Origin: Oscillospiraceae bacterium
GTDB taxonomy: Bacteria > Bacillota > Clostridia > Oscillospirales > CAG-272
Reading direction: 5' to 3'
DNA: 64,000 nt
NCBI GenBank assembly: GCA_015064025.1
Contig: SVSZ01000001.1
Coordinates: forward strand, 1,705 to 65,704
This document shows, one piece after another, positions 5,485 to 64,000 of the stretch. Both the position numbers and the translations under genes were made by a program. Below the pieces are notes generated by a model. It did not search any database, was not told where the DNA came from, and saw nothing but the letters and a program-made list of their open reading frames with translations. The number at the start of each line of letters is the position of its first letter. Position 1 is the stretch's first letter.

Positions 5485-8400
5485 TCAAATGACAAGTCTC
5501 AATACAGGCACCACCCCGGGTTTGTCGGAAGTGATAACCTCTCGAGAAGTAGCCCCGTTGTTGCCGACCACAGTCACCATTTGAGAAGAATCCTCCATAG
5601 GTGAACGAAGCCACCAAACTCCGTTACCGGTTTTACCGGTGAGCTTACTTGTATACGCTCCCTGTGACTGCGCGTAATCGGTGGACTTTTTCATTCTTGC
5701 AGCGTCAGTCCCCGACGCATCAGAGGAAAAGCCATAGTCACCATAGATCACATCCTGATGGGAAAGCAGGAATATCTTATCCTCCGTAGCTTCGCAAACG
5801 TAGGAATTTGAAATGCTGCCTGTACTTGTTATGCTGTTGTCTACCAAAGTTGTAAGTATGACCTTTTGCTGGAGACTGTCAAAGGCTGTATTCATGAAGG
5901 TCTCGTTGAGCCATTTCCTTATCGTACTGTAGGCATAATTGGAAGCATACGTATTGCTCGGCACTCCGTTTGAGGAATTATAAGATTCGTTCCCCACGGA
6001 AGAAGATACATTCTGGTACGCCTGCGCATCTATGATCATATCACAAATGACCAGTGCTGTGCCATTGGCGGTATCCTCACTAAGGATCGTCCAAGCAATC
6101 GGCTCATATTTGAACCAGTAGACCGTACTTTTAGAATAACCGTTTTCCGTCTGGGTCAGATTACGGGCGGAGGTGAAATACACACCTCGGTAGCGCTCTC
6201 CTCCCTCTGACACGTCAATATACCACATAAAGTTACTGACACTGCCGTTCAGATAATAGCCGTACGACGTCCATGCTCGCGAATTCGAGCTTGATGGAAG
6301 TGTACCTGCTTTGGTTGTAAGGGACCTGATCAGATCCCTATCGGTCACCTTACTTTGCGGATAGGTTCCGAAGTAGACGGTATTGCCGTCACGCTTCAAT
6401 CCGCAAACCGTGCAAATCCCCTCCACATAGTCGTGCTCATGTACGTCATTCGCAACCGACAGAGATGTGCCGCATACATCGCACGTTCCGTCCGAATCCA
6501 AATCGGCACATTCGCTGATTTTATCGCCACAATAATCGCAGATATGATTCTTATCATTGTCGGCACAATCACAAAGCTTGATCCGCAACGCAGGCACAAC
6601 GCCGATAGCGGTTAAGTAAACATTGCCTGTTTTGTTGACATAGCCGTTGGTTGCAACGTTGCGTACGTTCGTCCCGTTTGTATTATAAGGAGAACGGAGC
6701 CACCATTGACCGTAACCGTTTACACACATTGTTCCCTGTGCCTGTGCGTAATCGGTAGCTTTTCTGGACAAATTGTAAGCGATGTCTGCAGCTTCCAAGG
6801 CAGAGATCAGGAAGATCCGATCCTCGGTGTTTTCGCATGCGTGGGAATTCGCGCTGTATCCCGTGCTTGCCACACTGTTATCCACCGTCGTCACGAGAAT
6901 GAGCGATGCTTGCAGCTCGTTAAAGGCGGTCTCCATAAAGGTCTCGTTGAGCCACGTTCTTATCGTGCTGTACGCGTAATTGTTGGGATCCACCGTTTTT
7001 CCGCCCACCGTTCTCGTACCGCTGTCGGTGAGATAATACTCTTGCGAATCTATGATCATGTCGCACAGGATCATTGCAGTACCTTCGAAGGTGTCCTCGG
7101 AAACGATCTTCCAGGAGATCGGCTCATACTTAAACCAATACACCGTGCTTGTAAAATAACCGTTCTCATACTGATACGTGGTGGATTCCGAAGAGGCAGC
7201 CACCGTATACCACGGACGGTAAGACGAGAAATATACTCCTCGATACTTCTCTCCGCCCTCTTCAACGTCAATATACCACATAAAATTGCTGACGTTGCTG
7301 TTGATATAATAGCCGTAAGACGTCCACGCCTGCGAATTACTCTCTGTCGGAAGCGTCCCTGCTTTGGAATTGAGTGTACTCTTCAAGGCATCATCCGTTA
7401 CCTCACTCTGCGGATAGGAGCCAAAAGTGATCTTGTTACCGTTACGGTCGTACGGACGCTTGACACTGCAAAGCGTACAATAACCGTTTTCGTAAGTATG
7501 CCGCGTGAATTCTTCGCACTCTTCACAAATGTGATCCTTATTTGCATCAACACACTCTGTGATCACTGTGCCGCACACATCACAAGCATGATCGTGATCA
7601 GCGTCGGTACAATTACAAAGTCTGATCTGCAATGCAGGCACCACTCCAAGGCCTGCATTAAGCGAAGCGCTGGAAACCGTACCGTTGGGTTCTATGTTGC
7701 GCACGAAGCCGGCTTCACTGTTACCGGGTGAGCGGAGGAACCACCATACGTTTCCGTCGCTTGTATTCACATGTACGCCCTGTGCCTTTGCATAATCGGT
7801 AGCCGCTTTCCCCTGTGCGACAGCGCTGCCATTTGCTTCCTTGTAAGACAGCAGGAATATCTTATCGTGCGTATCCTCACATGCATAGGAATTTGTGGCA
7901 GTTCCGGTGCTTGCCGCACTGTTATCTACCGTCGTTGTGAGAATGTGCGATGCTTGCGCCTCATCAAAGGCGGTTCCTATAAAGCTTTCGTTAAGCCATG
8001 CTCTTACCGCGCTGTGCGCATAGTTGTTGGGATACACCGTTTCTCCGTTCAAGAGTCTGGTACCGCTGTTGGTGATATAGTACACCTGGGAATCCATGAC
8101 CGCGTCACACACGATCATCGCGGTACCGCCCGCAGTATCCTCGGAAAGGATAGTCCAGGCAATCGGTTCATACTTGAACCAATACACCGTACGTGTGGAA
8201 TAACCGTTATCATCCTGATACGTGTAAGCCGTCGACGAGGACTGCGACGGATTATAAGGACGGTAGTAGGTAAAATATACGCCCCTATATTTTTCGCCGC
8301 CGTCTTCTACGTCAATATACCACATGGTATGACTCACGTTACCGCCGATATAGTAGTTGTAAGACGTCCATTTTTGCGGAGTGTAAACCGTCGGAAGCTT

Positions 8401-50167: not shown

Positions 50168-50290
50168 TGTCGCGCCTTCCCCTCTCCGTCACGGATTCGC
50201 CTCCCCCCAAAGTGCGCGTGCACGAAGGGAGAGGCAAGGCTCCCCCTTTGGGGGAGCTGGCGAGCGAATGCGAGACTGAGAGGGCTTGCA
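50168..50290. repeat. GC-rich intergenic repeat, locus A (long imperfect hairpin)
   Basis: Arms CCCTCTCCGTCACGGATTCGCCTCCCCCCAAAG (50180-50212) and CTCCCCCTTTGGGGGAGC...GAGACTGAGAGGG (50241-50284). The 12-mer CCCTCTCCGTCA also occurs at 55119 and, reverse-complemented, at 63891. Confidence 0.8.
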
Positions 50291-50445: not shown

Positions 50446-53400
50446 TTACGCAAAGGTGATGTTCGCAGAAGCGTAACCGGCGATCACTTCATCCGAAGAA
50501 TTGACCACCCATATCTGGATCAATACCTCGGTCCCTGCTGTGAGCTCAACAGTCAAGGGATTCCTACGTTTAGCAACACCGCTTGCAAGCTCAAGACCGG
50601 TTGCCTTATCCGTAACAACGATCTTAATATTCGCACTGCTCGTAATCGGTGTCGTACGATCAAACGTCAAGGTTCCGTCGGCTGTTGCCGTATACTTAAA
50701 GTAATAGCCGTCCGTTGTAATGGGAGCACTCTGGGCACCTATTGCCACCTTTGTAGCGGTTGCACTCAGGGAAGCAATTTCTTCGGGGTTCGCCGCAGAG
50801 CCGAGTTTAATGTCGGCACTGAGAGAGATCGTACCGCTCACACCGCGGTTCACGACGAAGATCACAGGACCTGTACCCTCTTCTACGGGAGGAATCGGCT
50901 TTGTCGCCGTTGCATTCGGGTACAAGGATGTCTTGTTGTCGGGAGCTGTTGCAAGATAGTAAACAACCTCTGCATTGGTCTCTCCGTCAACCAACGTAAG
51001 TCCGCTTACGTCAACCGTAATTTCCTTACCTGTAAGCCCCAGAGAATAATACTTACCGGGATCTACTGTCCAGGAGGTTACCGTAGCATCAAGCACGATC
51101 GGATTGTATACCGTACCGGCTTCGGGAGTAAAGCCTGCAGTGAAGGTAATGTCAGCCGCTGCACGGTCACCCGTGAGCTCGTCTGCAATCACAATCACTT
51201 GAATCTTAACGGTCTCACTTGCTGCGACCGTCACGTTGAGAGCCCCTTCGGTCACGTCGCTGAGCTTGAAGGTGCCTGTAGCTGTCGTTACAATGATATC
51301 GGCAACAACACCGTCGGTGATGGTAGCAATATCAAAGGACGCGGTTCCGGGAACGTCGCTGTAAGGATTCTTCCAGGTGTAGTAGTAACCGTCCGCATCG
51401 TTCGCTTCAAGACTAAGGTCGATAGAAGCAACCTCATTCTTTACGCTCGGGATGCTTACAGGCTTATTCACAGAACCTACGGGATAATCGAAGGTATAAG
51501 TATATTCGCTTCCGTCTCCCACGATCTTAAAGCTCACCGACTCTTCGTCCGCCAAGAGGAAGGATATTCTGCCATCTGTATCGTTATAAGTAGTTCCGTT
51601 GTAGATTACAGAGAAGCCCGTGGGACCTGTGAAGGTCGCCTCGTTCTTATAAGCATTCGTGCTTTCAACGTAAAGTGCACTGTAATCTATCTGGAAGGAC
51701 ACGGTACCACTGACCGCCAGCACGTCGGAAAGCTTGCTGAGAGAGGCAGTAAAGGCAGTGGATAGCACAAGATCCGCCTCTGCGGGATAGGTATCGTCGG
51801 ATCCGGGATTGACAACAACGTGTACCGTGTATTCTGCGTTCTTTATTGCCTTGAAGCTAAGGACACCGTCCACTCCGTTTGCGCTCATCTTCTTATAGGG
51901 GGTAGTTCCCATCATTACGATAAGGTCGGTTTCTACATCTGCCGCCTCGCAAGTGAGCATAAATTCTACCGTACCCGTTGCACTGGGAACGAAGTCGAAG
52001 TAATATCCATCTTTGATATAGGTTCCGAGGTGAAGCTCCGTCTCACCAAAGGCAAGCGTATCATGTCTTGCGGCAGAGCCCAGAGGGTCGTTCACGTTGA
52101 TATTGTAAACACCGCATCCCTCGATCGCAAAGGTGATTGCATCGGTTTGATCGGTGCTAAGCTCGATCGTTGCAATTCCCTTTGCCTCAGCATCGGGATC
52201 GTCGTTGGGAATCAACGTGTCGGTGATCTCACCGTCGTTGTAGAGAAGCTTGAAGCCCGCAGGACCTGTAACGGTGATGACCTCACCCGGGAAAGCACCT
52301 TGATAATAAAGGGTCCCGTTTACAACAGCGGTGGTGTTGTTCTTGACGATGGTGATGGGATTGTTCTTGTTTCCGAGATCCGCATCTACGGTCACGTTAC
52401 CTGTAAATCCGCCGAGGATCGTCAACTGAGGATTCGTAAATGCATCGGAGCCTGCCGTGTTTGCGATCAGCTTTGCGGAAAGTCCGCGAATGTTCGCAAC
52501 AGCAAAGTTTCCGGAGTAAAGGGTTACCGTCTTTTCCCCGACCTTCAAGGTCATATAAGCGATCGCCGCAAAATCACGGTCAAGATTTTCGGGCTTGATA
52601 TCAATGATCGAAGCGGTCATATAGGTCTTGGAGGTATCCTCTTCGTCGATCTCGAAGCCTGCCGCTCCCTCGAAATCCTTTACGTATTTGACGTCAAGGT
52701 AATTCACGTCCTTGTCAAGGGTATCAAGGTTTTCCTTATTGAAGGAGCCTGCGGTCAATACGTAATCATAAGGAGCGATGAGCGTTCCGCGGTCAACGAT
52801 CGTGGCGCCAAGGGTCTCGGTGATCTCCTCAAGACGAGCCGTGTTGACTTCGGTTGCGAAACGCAAGCCGTTGGGAGTTTCGAAACGAACGGTGGTCTCA
52901 CCCAAGGTGTTGATAACGTCGTTGTACGCATCCAGCTCCGCTTCCTTCGTAAGATAGGAAAGGTGTTCGCCTTCCCCGTCCACGTAATTTGCGGGATCTG
53001 CCACTTCGACCTTGACGTTGTCGATACAAATGCCGCCCTTCAATTCACTTTCAAGGCTATTGGTTCTTTGAATCTTCGCAACGTTCCAATAGGAGCCCGC
53101 ATCCTTACCGATGGTAAGGTTGCCATGTCCGACCGTTCTCTCTGCCACGTAGGTGTCGTTAAGATAGATCTGATAGACACCCGTTTCAAGATTCAGAACA
53201 AGCTTGAGATTGTTCCACTGACCGATCTTCATGTAGGTCTCGGTAGCACCGATGGCAACCTGACCGTCGTTGTCGGACATCTTACCCGTTGCGATGTCGA
53301 CCTTGAAGATCTGCATCCAAGACTTTCTCTCGTTCTTATCCTCTGCAGTGCTTGCCGCATTGTAGCTGTAGAACGACTCAAACTGGGACTCTACAATTCC

Positions 53401-54717
53401 CTTGGAGCCATGCTCGATGAAGTAGTCCGCCGAAAGAACAACGGTCTTACCGGGATTCTCCGCATCGTTATATGCGAAGGTGGGGTGTACAAACTTGGAA
53501 GCCTTAGCAATGTTCTGTCCGCCGTTCGCGATCTCGGTGACCGCATCGGGAACGATGTAATATCTCTTCCCGTCGGTCAAAAGATCGCCCCAGCTGTCAT
53601 CGGTCACGTAATAGAAGCCGTTGTTTCTATCAAGCTTCAGATCAAAGTTCTCCACACCGTGCTCCTTGGTATCCAAAGACACGGTATTGCTTTTACCGTC
53701 CCATACGATGCCCGAAGCATAGGTCTTCTTGCAATCCGCACTGATGAGTGTGTAAGTATCGGTAGGAAGTGCCGCCGCCATAGGGATACGGCAAACGATA
53801 CTGCCATCCATACGCTCGTAGGTTGCAAGAGAAGGTGTGGAAACACCGCCTGCCTGGTAGCCTACGCTGTAGATGTAATCCTCGAAATCCTCATAGGGCT
53901 TGGATTCCCTGGGCTCAGCCGTCGGAGTGTCGCCTGCGAAGAACCTGATGTTGTCGATCTGAACAGAGCCGGCACCGGGATATTTATTGGGCTTTGTAAC
54001 AATGAACTTCCCTTCGGGGATGACAAGGTTGGTGCTAACCTTGGTCCCCATGTTGCTGACATTTTCAAAAACTTTTACACCGTTGATGTAAAGGTCGTAT
54101 CTGCATGCCTTCATGTCGAGCACCATGGAAACGGTGTTCCAGACACCGAGCTTCATGCTGTTCTCTGCCAGAGCAGTTCCAAAGGAACCGCCGCCCTCCG
54201 TCACCAAGAATGCCTTACCGTCCTGCAGCTGCACGCAGAAGAGAGAGATCCACGAAGCGTCTCCGGCTGCGGAACGCGCGTTCGTAAGCTGTGTCTGGAG
54301 TCTTCCCGTAGAGCCGGGACCAAAGAAGAGATCTACCTCGTATACGATCTTTTCATACGTTTCATGGCTGATCTCGGGATTGTTGATCGTTTGGCTGACG
54401 TCCTTGTTCAATTCGTCCGGAGCCTTATTGTTCGTCGTATCGTTGACCTTGTAATCAAAGCTCCACGCATTGGAACCAAAGGTATCGGAAATGACGGAAT
54501 TCGCAAGCGCCAGCTTCATCCCGGAGGTAGGCGCCTTGCCAACCGTTTCCGCTTCAAAATCCAGAGCGAAGATCGGAGTCGGCGTGGCGGGCGGCGTTTC
54601 CTGTTCTTCAAAGAGGACGCCGTTAAAATCCGCAAAAGTAGGGATGCTGATCAGAGGTAGAATCGTTACAAGTGCCAATGCAAACGCAAGGATCCTGCTG
54701 TGCTTTCTGATTTTCAT
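50446..54717 (-). CDS. 1,423-aa secreted surface protein (LamG-like lectin domains plus PPC-like beta-sandwich repeats)
   Basis: Signal peptide MKIRKHSRILAFALALVTILPLISIPTFA. Two lectin-type cores: GVWNTVSMVLDM....YDLYINGV and IGQWNNLKLVLNLETGVYQIYLND. A GLRFATEV...GTLIAPYDYV module. Several DGYY[FY].[FYW] units. Paralogous to 61033-63390. Confidence 0.85.
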   Translation of the reverse strand: MKIRKHSRILAFALALVTILPLISIPTFADFNGVLFEEQETPPATPTPIFALDFEAETVGKAPTSGMKLALANSVISDTFGSNAWSFDYKVNDTTNNKAPDELNKDVSQTINNPEISHETYEKIVYEVDLFFGPGSTGRLQTQLTNARSAAGDASWISLFCVQLQDGKAFLVTEGGGSFGTALAENSMKLGVWNTVSMVLDMKACRYDLYINGVKVFENVSNMGTKVSTNLVIPEGKFIVTKPNKYPGAGSVQIDNIRFFAGDTPTAEPRESKPYEDFEDYIYSVGYQAGGVSTPSLATYERMDGSIVCRIPMAAALPTDTYTLISADCKKTYASGIVWDGKSNTVSLDTKEHGVENFDLKLDRNNGFYYVTDDSWGDLLTDGKRYYIVPDAVTEIANGGQNIAKASKFVHPTFAYNDAENPGKTVVLSADYFIEHGSKGIVESQFESFYSYNAASTAEDKNERKSWMQIFKVDIATGKMSDNDGQVAIGATETYMKIGQWNNLKLVLNLETGVYQIYLNDTYVAERTVGHGNLTIGKDAGSYWNVAKIQRTNSLESELKGGICIDNVKVEVADPANYVDGEGEHLSYLTKEAELDAYNDVINTLGETTVRFETPNGLRFATEVNTARLEEITETLGATIVDRGTLIAPYDYVLTAGSFNKENLDTLDKDVNYLDVKYVKDFEGAAGFEIDEEDTSKTYMTASIIDIKPENLDRDFAAIAYMTLKVGEKTVTLYSGNFAVANIRGLSAKLIANTAGSDAFTNPQLTILGGFTGNVTVDADLGNKNNPITIVKNNTTAVVNGTLYYQGAFPGEVITVTGPAGFKLLYNDGEITDTLIPNDDPDAEAKGIATIELSTDQTDAITFAIEGCGVYNINVNDPLGSAARHDTLAFGETELHLGTYIKDGYYFDFVPSATGTVEFMLTCEAADVETDLIVMMGTTPYKKMSANGVDGVLSFKAIKNAEYTVHVVVNPGSDDTYPAEADLVLSTAFTASLSKLSDVLAVSGTVSFQIDYSALYVESTNAYKNEATFTGPTGFSVIYNGTTYNDTDGRISFLLADEESVSFKIVGDGSEYTYTFDYPVGSVNKPVSIPSVKNEVASIDLSLEANDADGYYYTWKNPYSDVPGTASFDIATITDGVVADIIVTTATGTFKLSDVTEGALNVTVAASETVKIQVIVIADELTGDRAAADITFTAGFTPEAGTVYNPIVLDATVTSWTVDPGKYYSLGLTGKEITVDVSGLTLVDGETNAEVVYYLATAPDNKTSLYPNATATKPIPPVEEGTGPVIFVVNRGVSGTISLSADIKLGSAANPEEIASLSATATKVAIGAQSAPITTDGYYFKYTATADGTLTFDRTTPITSSANIKIVVTDKATGLELASGVAKRRNPLTVELTAGTEVLIQIWVVNSSDEVIAGYASANITFA

Positions 54718-54956
54718 AGCATTTTTCCTTTCTTTGTTTCGGGAAAAACCCGTTTTTTCAGATCAAAGCAACGAAGTCTCACATGGTGCGTCCCGCGGGA
54801 GGATCGAACACCGATTGAAATATAGCTGTATGCCATAAGAAAACCAAGCCCGATTCCCCAAGATCGCCAAGCGCGAAACGACGGGAACACATGCAAGTAA
54901 GCTTCATTTTCTCCTGTTGACAACCGTGTGAAGACACACTGATTGATCCTACTTCA

Positions 54957-54985
54957 TATTATATCATTCGACCCGTATTTTGTCA
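54957..54985 (-). promoter_or_regulatory. Candidate promoter of the 1,423-aa gene
   Basis: On the minus strand: TTGACAAAAT...AATGATAAATA (-35 at 54985-54980, -10 TAAATA at 54962-54957). It resembles the promoter of the paralog. Confidence 0.5.
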
Positions 54986-55076
54986 ATTAACAAACGGCAC
55001 AAAAAGCCTCCCGACAAATTGTATTTTTTGAACAAAGGCATTTTGGAAGACTCTCTTCTGTGCCAGTCAACACCTT

Positions 55077-55560
55077 GCCCTCTCAGTCGCCTTACAGCGA
55101 CAGCTCTCACAGAGGGGTACCCTCTCCGTCAGCCTGCGGCTGCCACCTCCCCAAAGGCAATGTCGTCAACTTAAAGTTGCCGCCATTGCGTGAGGCACGA
55201 CGCTTTGCGTCGCATGATGCGTGCCGTTTTACGGCACAGTGATATCGCCGCTGTGTGGCTGTGAGGCGTGTTGCTTCGCAACACATTGAGGAAGAAAATT
55301 TCCGCGTTTTACAACGCTGAAATTTTCAAATAATTCTTAAGTTGACGACGTTGCCCCCAAAGGGGGAGCCTCTTGCGGTAGTGAGCCGGCGGCGAACGTT
55401 GAGGTGAGCTTTTTGCACAGCAAAAAGACGGAAGGAGTAATAGCATCCCTCTTTGAGGCGAGTTTGCGAAGCAAACTGCGATAGTGAGGCGAAAGCCGAA
55501 CGTTGAGGTGAGCTTTTTGCGCAGCAAAAAGACGGAAGGAGTATTTTTTAGAAATTTTAC
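55077..55560. repeat. GC-rich intergenic repeat mosaic, locus B (nested inverted repeats, 47-nt direct repeat, hairpin array)
   Basis: Family motifs at 55077-55157. Inverted repeat GTCGTCAACTTAAAG (55161-55175) with CTTAAGTTGACGAC (55336-55349). Direct repeats 55392-55438 and 55496-55542 (1 mismatch). Seven TGAGG motifs and eight short hairpins. Confidence 0.85.
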
Positions 55561-55603: not shown

Positions 55604-55640
55604 TAAAAAAACCGTCCGCGGTGCGTTTTGCACCGCGGAC
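55604..55640 (-). terminator. glyQS terminator
   Basis: CGTCCGCGGTGC / GCACCGCGGACG, followed by TTTTTTT on the minus strand. Confidence 0.88.
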
Positions 55641-55692
55641 GATGGGGGTTGATAAGCGCCTGCTCTTCTCCGTCCGGCACACGCCGCGCGGA

Positions 55693-57108
55693 TCAGAATT
55701 CGATCTTCTTTTCGATATAGGACTTCAATTCGGAGATCGGGATGCGAACCTGCTCCATAGTGTCTCTGTCGCGTACGGTTACGCAGTTATCTGCTTCCTT
55801 CTCACCGTCACCTACCGTCTCAAAGTCAACAGTGATGCAAAGAGGTGTACCGATCTCGTCCTGACGGCGGTAACGCTTACCGATAGAGCCTGTTTCGTCG
55901 TAGTCTATCATGAAGTACTTGGAAAGCTCGTCATAGATCTCACCCGCCTTATCACCCAGCTTCTTTGAAAGTGGGAGGATCGCCGCCTTGAAGGGCGCGA
56001 GTGCGGGATGGAGATGCAGAACGGTACGAACGTCGTTCTTCTCCGCGTCGATGACCTCCTCGTCGTAGGCGTCAACAAGGAATGCAAGAGCGACGCGGTC
56101 AGCACCGAGAGAGGGCTCGATAACGTAAGGAATGTAATGCTCGCCCGTTTCCTGATCGAAATAGGTCATATCCTTACCGCTGTGGGTCTGGTGTTGACCA
56201 AGGTCGTAATCGGTACGGTCGGCAACGCCCCAAAGCTCGCCCCATCCGAACGGGAAAAGGAACTCAAAGTCGGTGGTTGCTTTGGAATAGAAGCAAAGCT
56301 CATCGGGATCGTGGTCGCGCAGACGGAGATTTTCGTCGCGCATACCGAGGTTCAGAAGGAACTGATGGCAGTAATCCTTCCAATATGCAAACCACTCAAG
56401 ATCGGTGCCGGGCTTGCAGAAAAATTCAAGCTCCATCTGCTCGAACTCACGGGTACGGAACACAAAGTTACCGGGGGTGATCTCATTGCGGAAGGACTTA
56501 CCGATCTGCGCGATACCGAAGGGGAGCTTCTTGCGCGTGGTACGCTGTGCCGCGGGGAAGTTTACGAAAATTCCCTGTGCCGTTTCGGGACGCAGATAAA
56601 CGGTGCTGGAGTTATCCTCGGTGACACCGATGAAGGTTTTGAACATGAGGTTAAACTTCTTGATATCGGCAAAATCATGACCGCCGCACTGGGGGCAGGC
56701 AATGTTCTTTTCCTTGATATAGGAAGCCATTTCCTCAAAGCTCCATGCCGCGGGGTTGTCGTTAAGACCGTTTTGGAAGGCATAATCCTCGATCAGCTTG
56801 TCCGCACGGTGGCGCATTTTGCACTGCTTGCAGTCCATCAAGGGATCGGAGAAGCCGCCGACGTGACCCGAAGCGACCCAAGCCTGGGGATTCATGATGA
56901 TGGCGCTGTCAAGACCGACGTTGTACTTGCTTTCCTGTACGAACTTTTTCCACCAAGCACGCTTGACGTTGTTCTTGAACTCAACGCCCAAGGGACCGTA
57001 GTCCCAGGAGTTGGCAAGACCGCCGTAGATCTCGGAACCGGGGAAAATGAAGCCGCGCGTTTTACAAAGCGCTACGATTTTATCCATTGTTTTTTCAGAA
57101 TTGTTCAT
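55693..57108 (-). CDS. glyQS: Glycine--tRNA ligase (dimeric class II type)
   Basis: Start ATG 57108 after [56 protein letters not shown]. Confidence 0.93.
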
Positions 57109-57144
57109 AATGATTCTCCTGCTGTGTTTGCTATAATACATTTT

Positions 57145-63608: not shown

Positions 63609-64000
63609 TCCTTCCGTCACAGCTTCGCCGCGAACCCCCAAAGCTCGCAAGCTCGCTTCGGGGAACCCCGTCGCCGCGAACCCCCAAAGCTCGCGAGCTC
63701 GCTTCGGGGAACCCCGGAGGGGGCTAACCTGCTGTCGTTTTGCAGATTTCATTGGAACAAAAGCAACCCACTACACCGCAGGTCGCCCCTACGGGTATAA
63801 TTGCCCTCCGTTCGTGCACGCCCACTCCTCCCCGCACCGCAAAGCGGTGTTCCCCTCCTCTCGGAGGAGGGCTAAAGCGCGGCGAAGCCGTGACGGAGAG
63901 GGTAGCCTCCCACTCTGGGGGAGGTGGCGCGGCGAACCGTGTTCGCACCCGATGATACGGTAGGGGCGACCTGCGGTCGCCCGCATAGCCTCCCTCTTTG
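63609..64000. repeat. GC-rich intergenic repeat mosaic, locus C (runs to the window edge)
   Basis: 46-nt tandem duplication at 63625-63670 and 63671-63716 (1 mismatch). 17-bp perfect inverted repeat CCGCAGGTCGCCCCTAC (63776-63792) with 63960-63976. Family motif TGACGGAGAGGG at 63891-63902. Confidence 0.85.

Follow-up and report, generated by a model that had tools for sequence, protein, structure and literature searches.

A hairpin array downstream of glyQS in an Oscillospiraceae bacterium as a probable BIME/REP-like mosaic linked to a dispersed two-hairpin repeat family

The 975-nt spacer between a GlyRS-type gene (glyQS) and an open reading frame (ORF) of 1,423 amino acids in an Oscillospiraceae bacterium (contig SVSZ01000001.1) carries an array of short hairpins punctuated by the motif TGAGG (55190-55545). 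The stretch of 64 kb that was analysed is called the window throughout this text. What kind of element is this array? An earlier note on this DNA had offered three options: a mosaic of hairpins resembling bacterial interspersed mosaic elements (BIME), a structured non-coding RNA (ncRNA) with Shine-Dalgarno (SD)-like motifs, and decayed repeat debris. Here, we found that a larger complex (about 55040-55545), of which the array forms the right half, had been overlooked, and that intact units of a dispersed repeat family are present in the same spacer. We consider it probable that the complex is a mosaic of palindromic DNA repeat units between two genes, similar to BIME and to repetitive extragenic palindromes (REP), and that its right arm is derived from this family.

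Intact repeat units and a larger inverted structure in the glyQS spacer

The recurring unit read from the spacer and from the intergenic region on the far side of the 1,423-aa gene was GGGGAG(G/C)TG.C - hairpin - GAC(G/T)GAGAGGG. In a complete unit, a C-run/G-run hairpin (P1) is combined with a short GC hairpin of variable sequence (P2), which usually carries a C:G-closed GNA triloop and stands between a G-rich 5' flank (GGGGAGGTGGC or GGGGAGCTGTC) and a G-rich 3' flank (GACGGAGRGGG, GACTGAGAGGG, GACGGAAGGAG or GACGGATGAGGC). The frame of the family reads CCCC-loop-GGGGAG(G/C)TG(G/T)C, variable hairpin, GAC(G/T)GAG(G/A)GGG, and it was found in the window at 55075-55126, 55118-55163, 50178-50287 and 63822-63941. 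Membership was scored with two covariance models. Model R1 involved 112 training rows, one of which is the window sequence 55118-55163, and model R2 was built from 54 units of viral contigs and of L012 (a rumen metagenome-assembled genome (MAG) of a relative), with the window excluded. The presence of intact family units in the glyQS spacer itself (R2 E-value 2.8e-9 for the type-2 unit, R1 E-value 3e-9 for the type-1 unit) favours the BIME-like option. In BLAST searches, the sequence 55075-55126 matched many units of viral contigs, and the hairpin of 55118-55163 is identical to that of the units in two other loci (L108, L183). When all sites were counted, at least six units were located in three intergenic regions of the window, and each set lies between a terminator and the next promoter. 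The units at 50178-50287 form an inverted pair between a terminator-like hairpin of the 1,423-aa gene and the next promoter (fold of the single-stranded DNA (ssDNA), z -4.9), and those at 63822-63941 lie in the third intergenic region, upstream of the promoter of a 785-aa gene. The sites on the far side of the 1,423-aa gene and in the third region had not been noticed before.

The intact units and the array are parts of one inverted structure. Two G-rich units on the - strand (55075-55163) mirror the array, and a 19-nt inverted repeat with 95% complementary arms encloses 162 nt (0.03 such repeats expected). The segment 55040-55480 folds as a long imperfect palindrome (z -6.3), and its opposite strand folds equally well (z -6.75). 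The GC skew is negative to the left and positive to the right of about 55200, so that the G-rich units point outward-in on opposite strands (head-to-head). In a self-comparison of the window, an 18-mer of the P1-type palindrome (55352-55371) recurred in inverted form beyond the 1,423-aa gene, at 50237-50254.

The 19-nt inverted repeat with its 162-nt interior also has the typical geometry of an invertible DNA switch (inverton), and the segment 55175-55336 could in principle control the neighbouring large gene, whose 1,423-aa product has an N-terminus resembling a signal peptide. However, no promoter-like site was found inside 55175-55336 in either orientation, and for this reason the inverton was rejected. 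Moreover, the perfect promoter of the gene lies downstream of the segment, beside the gene, so that an inversion would not uncouple the two, and the arms are the 5' parts of two inverted repeat-unit copies; L012 has a related AAGTTAC...P1 module. We regard such a switch as scarcely credible.

The TGAGG-hairpin array and its link to the family

All features of the array described in the earlier note were present, but all of its coordinates were 1 nt too low. The seven TGAGG motifs start on the + strand at 55191, 55262, 55287, 55400, 55454, 55485 and 55504. Their clustering was confirmed (7 in 318 nt), but the number expected is 0.375 rather than about 0.3, as calculated from 151 occurrences on both strands of the window for 318 nt of one strand. 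The probability of at least seven motifs is about 1.5e-7, and the next-best cluster in the window contains three to four. Since two of the seven fall in a recent duplication, about six are independent. It had escaped attention that each of the seven TGAGG (7/7) is located 0-5 nt upstream of a hairpin.

The listed hairpins were all located. When the 64-kb window was searched for perfect stems of at least 6 bp with loops of 3-5 nt, the region 55150-55560 yielded 11 matches versus 0.72 expected and was the densest of the window; the 11 matches correspond to six distinct hairpins, several of which were scored at two loop sizes, and the background rate was counted likewise. The 47-nt direct repeat reported before (55393-55439 and 55497-55543, one mismatch) also stood, and a longer duplication of about 68 nt was recognised around this core (55374-55441 versus 55477-55545, 104-nt spacing, about 90% identical). 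The stems of the array are AT-rich yet perfect, and the paralogous hairpins u3 and u6 differ by compensated changes in the stem and by reverse-complemented loops (ttc versus gaa). The loops (ttt, ttc, aca, gca, gaa and gaaa) do not contain the GGA/GAGG motifs, which are found next to the hairpins. DNA mini-hairpin motifs occur four times: GCGAAGC at 55466 and, on the - strand, at 55279, GCGCAGC at 55519 and GCGAAAGC at 55489. The individual features are summarized in Table 1.

Table 1. Positions of repeat units, array elements and neighbouring features in the window
Feature	Position	Strand	Details
Type-2 unit	55075-55126	-	GGGTACCCCTCTGTGAGAGCTGTC-[GC..tgtaag..GC hairpin]-GACTGAGAGGGCAA; R2 37.4 bits, E 2.8e-9
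Type-1 unit	55118-55163	-	CCTTTGGGGAGGTGGC-AGCC-gca-GGCT-GACGGAGAGGG; R1 40 bits, E 3e-9 (in training)
19-nt inverted repeat, left arm	55156-55174	.	GGCAATGTCGTCAACTTAA
19-nt inverted repeat, right arm	55337-55355	.	TTAAGTTGACGACGTTGCC
P1-type palindrome	55352-55371	.	TGCCCCCAAAGGGGGAGCCT; R2 partial matches E 0.12 and 1.9
u1	55191-55212	+	TGAGGC, then CGACGC-ttt-GCGTCG (55198-55212)
u2	55221-55237	+	GTGCCGT-ttt-ACGGCAC; no TGAGG immediately before
u3	55262-55284	+	TGAGGC, then GTGTTGC-ttc-GCAACAC (55268-55284); - strand is GCGAAGC mini-hairpin motif
u4	55287-55327	+	TGAGGAAG, then nested hairpin GAAAATTTCCGCGTT-ttac-AACGCTGAAATTTTC; 15-nt arms 55294-55308 / 55313-55327
Duplicated block, copy 1	55374-55441	+	holds u5, TTGAGGTGAGC-TTTTTGC-aca-GCAAAAA-GACGGAAGGAGTA
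u5 hairpin	55409-55427	+	CTTTTTGC-aca-GCAAAAAG
u6	55454-55477	+	TGAGGC, then AGTTTGC-gaa-GCAAACT (55461-55477); contains canonical d(GCGAAGC)
Duplicated block, copy 2	55477-55545	+	holds u7 and u8
u7	55485-55497	+	TGAGGC-gaaa-GCC = GCGAAAGC; hairpin GGC-gaaa-GCC 55488-55497
u8 hairpin	55513-55531	+	CTTTTTGC-gca-GCAAAAAG, loop GCGCAGC; in 47-nt repeat 55497-55543
Family unit	50234-50287	+	R2 62.4 bits, E 8.6e-17
R1 match to the unit 50234-50287	50233-50286	+	R1 E 0.029
Family unit	50178-50234	-	R1 E 0.042
Family unit	63905-63941	+	R1 E 1.5e-5
Family unit	63822-63904	+	R1 E 1.4e-3
R2 match in the third intergenic region	63906-63970	+	R2 E 0.005
GlyRS-type gene (glyQS)	55693-57141	-	
glyQS intrinsic terminator	55611-55643	-	14-bp stem, 10 GC pairs, T-run; right edge of spacer
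Sigma-70-type promoter of 1,423-aa gene	54958-54986	-	TTGACA-17-TATAAT, TG-extended, 12/12 consensus; left edge of repeat-filled spacer
1,423-aa ORF	50446-54717	-	signal-peptide-like N-terminus, no Pfam domain

The flanks of the array hairpins suggest a relation to the family. The arrangements TGAGGC-hairpin, TGAGGTGAGC-hairpin and TGAGGAAG-hairpin parallel the GGGGAGGTGGC-hairpin of the family, and the 3'-flank variants GACGGATGAGGC and GACTGATGAGGT of relatives contain TGAGG. The two duplicated units u5 and u8 read GAGGTGAGC-hairpin-GACGGAAGGAGT, compared with GAGGTGGC-hairpin-GACGGAAGGAGT in L012, and this 3' flank is identical to that of high-scoring L012 units. The array units lack P1.

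Several observations weigh against the mosaic reading and against derivation of the array from the family. BLAST and nhmmer searches of the spacer against 393 loci (about 3.5 Mb) matched only 55074-55157 and a P1 palindrome of 22 nt, so that 55190-55545 has no homologue there except for this 22-nt match. Since nothing else in 55190-55545 was matched, the link between array and family is architectural (flank motifs, adjacency). In R1, the array units scored weakly (E 1.2 for 55345-55439 with u5, E 1.1 for 55496-55543 with u8). The loops of the central segment (ttt, tttta, ttc, ttac) break the GNA rule on the + strand, and the subfamily pattern GAGGTGAGC..GACGGAAGGAG gave three matches in viral contigs, which is the chance level, in ordinary double-SD intercistronic contexts. 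The copy count comes from a single 77-kb contig of the organism. A crude scan of the window and of 313 loci for HUH/Tyr motifs gave no transposase candidate, and comparisons of filled and empty sites gave no clean target-site duplication and no consistent terminal inverted repeat, the two marks of DDE-type MITEs. Finally, the apparent lack of transcription is inferred from consensus scans only.

The missing homologues and the covariance model E-values of about 1 would also fit an alternative in which the array is an independent, lineage-specific product of tandem or segmental duplication, a functionless hairpin "stutter" beside family units. Its internal paralogy (u3/u6, u5/u8 and the duplication with 104-nt spacing) points the same way, as do its AT-rich stems, which are unlike the GC-rich hairpins of the family. 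However, bona fide units of a related species share the 12-nt flank GACGGAAGGAGT on the 3' side and GAGGTG(A)GC on the 5' side, and flank variants with TGAGG are present in relatives. Furthermore, the array mirrors intact units across the 19-nt inverted repeat and contains canonical GCGNAGC/GCGAAAGC loops. Thus, we consider independent duplication rather unlikely, and derivation from the family remains our preferred reading. The option of decayed debris was correct in part. The units of the + strand are divergent (covariance model E about 1) and AT-enriched, but their stems are perfect and one block was recently duplicated. Because of these two features, the array is probably an actively turning-over derivative of the family and not passive debris.

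To define the anatomy of the unit, alignments of 112 (A1) and 54 (A2) sequences were inspected. In both, an invariant G-rich frame surrounds a hairpin that is free in sequence yet complementary. For each pair of the P2 hairpin in A1, 33-53 of the 112 sequences were changed on both sides. The covariation score of A2 was 0.272 versus 0.092 in shuffles and was reached by none of 500 shuffles; 89% of its cells were paired, compared with 32-54% when the partner was slid. This covariation is no argument for an RNA, since template switching from arm to arm in a DNA palindrome can also yield it. The loops are one-sided. On the G-rich strand, 41 of 59 type-1 and 22 of 35 type-2 triloops were of the form GNA, whereas the complementary TNC was counted 0 and 4 times. 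The loop-closing pair was C:G in 73/87 (type 1) and 47/55 (type 2). DNA mini-hairpins of the sequences d(GCGNAGC) and d(GCGAAAGC) are exceptionally stable, with a melting temperature of 76.5 C, compared with 39 C for r(GCGAAAGC), and such motifs occur in ssDNA origins, priming signals and N4 promoters (PMC13037366). From these one-sided, DNA-stable loops we infer that it is the G-rich strand, as single-stranded DNA, that folds and is recognised.

The remaining option, transcription of the array (+ or -) as structured ncRNA, the GAGG/GGA motifs of which titrate a CsrA-like RNA-binding protein or ribosomes, has several features in its favour. Seven SD-like motifs are regularly set beside hairpins, as many GGA-containing motifs alternate with hairpins in the CsrB/RsmZ sponges; GAGGTGA and GGAAGGAG are near-perfect complements of the 16S rRNA 3' end, and the fold has a z-score of -6.3. 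However, when both strands of the spacer were scanned by consensus, no promoter- or terminator-like sites were found beyond those of the flanking genes. The + strand has no promoter-like site, the - strand has none upstream, and the region follows a strong terminator. The array occupies a gap, apparently untranscribed, that is bounded by the terminator of glyQS on one side and by the 1,423-aa gene's promoter on the other, both of which were found where the earlier note had placed them. The opposite strand folds equally well, there was no Rfam match at E<=1 (CsrB/Rsm families included), and a search of the region for tRNA and tmRNA found nothing. The motifs lie outside the loops, unlike those of CsrA-type sponges, the loops are of the DNA-stable, RNA-weak type, and units of the parent family are found in either orientation and also within ORFs. 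Conservation of the hairpins or of the motif spacing in relatives, the lack of which the earlier note had named as evidence against a functional RNA, was observed downstream of glyQS in none of 80 related species. Taken together, these data make a regulatory RNA very improbable.

Spread of the family and comparison with known elements

The preferred reading, a mosaic of DNA repeats, is in line with the behaviour of the family elsewhere: it is dispersed, present in both orientations, modular and polymorphic. Viral contigs were searched with the degenerate patterns GGGGAGGTGGC..GACGGARRGRG (type 1) and GGGGAGCTG..ACTGAGAGGG (type 2). Type 1 was found in 134 copies in 110 viral contigs, versus about 2 expected by chance (a back-of-envelope estimate that assumes a collection size). 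For type 2, at least 120 stretches were found and at least 151 sites extracted; a single contig may carry as many as 10 copies, and tandem arrays have a period of 66-67 nt. Together, the family counts more than 280 copies in viral contigs, and the median GC content was 0.69 for type-1 and 0.61 for type-2 loci. In cellular genomes, L012 contains many units in five intergenic regions, where they form large mosaic arrays; 7 match positions of R1/R2 at E<0.1 were found in 13 kb, plus weaker ones. In the Oscillospirales loci (about 1 Mb), there were only about a dozen strong matches outside L012, with single copies in a few others, which indicates a patchy expansion. Among named Clostridia, R1 matched Pseudoflavonifractor phocaeensis and an Acutalibacteraceae MAG, among others. 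In a prophage of Sphingomonas parapaucimobilis (plasmid NZ_CP155752.1; L394, 1350-1500), the terminase gene is separated from the portal gene by an inverted type-1 doublet, which is not annotated and ends about 20 nt before the SD sequence of the portal gene. Thus, the family spans two phyla (Bacillota, Alphaproteobacteria). A BLAST search of a type-1 doublet against plasmids gave no match, translated units matched no family of Pfam or NCBIfam, and none of the family sites overlapped an Rfam family. The family was not found in the literature searched and is likewise absent from Rfam 15; it appears to be undescribed, while its kind of element is known. Its spread over two phyla and their phages, its mini-hairpin signature on one strand, its modular gain and its in-frame copies in ORFs are unusual.

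Units face either way relative to the neighbouring genes, and a start or stop codon is often found within 30 nt. Many units are contained in long ORFs, where they are read in frame with the C-rich strand as sense, for instance in a putative Prp-like/scaffold fusion of 478 aa and in ORFs of 2,500-3,200 aa. Phage records from human gut that are otherwise unrelated have only the unit of about 65 nt in common. Near-identical phage contigs carry three alleles at one site: empty, P2 plus tail, and P1 plus P2 plus tail. The P1 module of 29 nt is bounded by direct TAAGCAG, and the other junctions are imprecise. An orthologous pair of loci differs by one entire type-1 unit.

A number of single loci add to this picture. 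In L210 (3613-5049) and its homologues, a phage ORF joins an N-terminal region, which we take to be Prp-like, to a presumably scaffold-like C-terminal region; the linker between the two (…SPSQSAQSAASSPEGGALG…) is the in-frame translation of a type-2 unit. The homologous proteins retain the unit, and their P2 stems differ yet stay complementary. Alignment of the allele sets compared the near-identical gut phage contigs L216/L226, L204/L240/L264 and L210/L214/L295, which have a full, a partial or no unit. L295 has an extra unit where the others have CTGTCATAAAAGACCTCCA, a sequence with the same CTGTC...GAC frame, and this hints at templated conversion rather than simple insertion. The - strand of L187 (IMG/VR) contains five tandem type-1 units with a period of about 212 nt, each inside a longer repeated block. 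L259 (IMG/VR 3300035505_000697) has tandem arrays of 3-5 type-2 units with the 66-67-nt period (1690-2010, 6465-6630); here, adjacent copies show compensated stem changes (TCTCGC..GCGAGA versus TCCCGC..GCGGGA), and the arrays give repetitive spurious peptides in all six frames (…DSSPKGGAK…, …QLPQRGSQ…).

Among known elements, the REP and BIME of Enterobacteria and Pseudomonas, which are associated with RAYT transposases, and the inverted REP doublets (REPIN) resemble the family. They are short, extragenic, imperfect palindromes with variable stems that cluster as intergenic mosaics, they form inverted doublets that fold into longer hairpins, they show patchy lineage-specific expansion, and they probably act as ssDNA hairpins. 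REP/BIME elements number tens to hundreds per genome, and their defined linkers are bound by IHF, gyrase or Pol I. In the window, the short palindromes are likewise clustered, all three sites are intergenic, and the arrangement is both head-to-head and tandem. On the other hand, the family units comprise two hairpins with G-rich SD-like flanks and start with CCCC/GGGGAG without the GTAG/GTGG head. The crude motif scan of the window and the 313 loci gave no gene for a REP-associated tyrosine transposase (RAYT; Y1/HUH). Moreover, the family also occurs in phage genomes, in frame inside ORFs and across Bacillota and Alphaproteobacteria, and the window clusters follow terminators and do not lie inside operons.

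A separate REP family of the GTAGGGGCG type coexists in these genomes. In the window, an inverted pair of classical-looking REP, GTAGGGGCGACC-tgc-GGTCGCCC with a GTAG head, is located at 63768-63792 (-) and 63960-63985 (+). Palindromes of the form GTAGGGGCG...CGCCCG with varying stems were present in many related loci (78 GTAGGGGC sites versus 52 expected, many of which form perfect palindromes), and these may represent a RAYT-type REP family in Oscillospirales. A 46-nt tandem repeat (63625-63716, 2.0 copies, 97% identity, TCGCCGCGAACCCCCAAAGCTCGCAAGCTCGCTTCGGGGAACCCCG) also falls in this third intergenic region, ahead of the promoter of the 785-aa gene.

The BOX elements of Streptococcus pneumoniae (boxA-boxB(n)-boxC) are interspersed repeats of a Firmicute with separately gained and lost modules, variable internal module number, strong secondary structure and no transposase of their own. 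This analogy concerns modular behaviour alone: BOX elements are commonly transcribed with neighbouring genes, whereas the family has different modules (P1, P2, G-rich tail) and a far wider spread. Like the Rickettsia palindromic elements (RPE), family members occur in frame inside long protein genes without breaking them, but RPEs measure 100-150 bp and are restricted to Rickettsia, and the family copies of the window itself are all intergenic. The array differs from CsrB/RsmZ by the lack of a promoter, a terminator, an Rfam match and conservation. The mini-hairpin DNA signals (ssDNA origins, ssi sites, early promoters of phage N4) share the loop-closing motif that dominates P2 of the family, where it is found on one strand; the known signals are single functional sites, whereas the family carries the motif within a repeated unit that looks mobile.

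The locus, a proposed mechanism and implications

The organism, an uncultured member of the Oscillospirales/Eubacteriales, is represented by one JGI metagenome contig of 77 kb (sample 3300031555), and the unit counts refer to the 64-kb window. Downstream of glyQS, the 80 related species (GlyRS 74-95% identical) have no similar region and no 1,423-aa gene; in the closest relative, the glyQS terminator leads directly into a convergent gene. None of 80 metagenome loci contained a region homologous to the spacer, none of the matches listed in a metagenome scan anchored on GlyRS was closer than 84%, and an exact look-up of the protein gave the source contig as the sole match. The 1,423-aa gene is lineage-specific, and its product is predicted from the sequence to be secreted. 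It is flanked on both sides by family units (50178-50287 and 55075-55163) with a common inverted 18-mer, and its acquisition or rearrangement at repeat clusters is suggested. Its 5' untranslated region (54718-54957, -) comprises 240 nt and folds moderately better than shuffles (z -2.8). This region holds ...GGTGTTCGATCCTCCCGCGGGACGCACCA, which resembles the T-arm/acceptor/CCA end of a tRNA; ARAGORN did not confirm a tRNA-like 3' end, Rfam was also empty, and the string could be the scar of a tRNA fragment or chance.

As to the origin of the array, we propose that its right arm (+ strand) would consist of AT-enriched, P1-less derivatives of the family core (TGAGG, 0-5 nt, hairpin), two of which (u5 and u8) would have kept GACGGAAGGAGT of the parent family. 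Tandem duplication (104-nt spacing), together with template switching inside the palindrome, may have increased the number of these units locally, which would explain the perfect stems, the compensated paralogues u3 and u6 and their inverted loop. The units would act and spread as ssDNA hairpins of the G-rich strand via some trans-acting enzyme or recombination process. The array would have no dedicated cellular function; as a possible side effect, it might favour recombination where an acquired gene begins or ends, as a hotspot at this border, or serve as spacer or insulator.

A more far-reaching version of this scenario appears unlikely to us but may be formulated. The units might be substrates or signals of an unrecognised ssDNA system that reads the C-GNA-G mini-hairpin with GGAGG-like flanks on one strand, for instance an HUH-type or a primase/ssDNA-promoter-type enzyme of temperate phages. 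Through such an enzyme, the element would have reached both phyla (Bacillota, Alphaproteobacteria) as well as structural genes of phages. In this case, local amplification and an AT shift would have turned the array into a landing pad or recombination hotspot, and it would have aided insertion of the 1,423-aa surface-protein gene between glyQS and a MiaB-like gene.

For the window, our data remove a candidate ncRNA and explain an "empty" spacer of 600 nt as repeat DNA that borders a lineage-specific gene. The family is common in gut Clostridia and their phages, with a high-GC counterpart in Alphaproteobacteria. It yields spurious ORFs and in-frame insertions, such as the peptides ALSV..DSSPKGGA and PSQS..APPEGEP. 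Signals of RNA structure and covariation are inflated by the family, and it probably causes assembly breaks and rearrangements in MAGs. The preference of one strand for DNA mini-hairpin loops provides a concrete handle on how the repeat is recognised.

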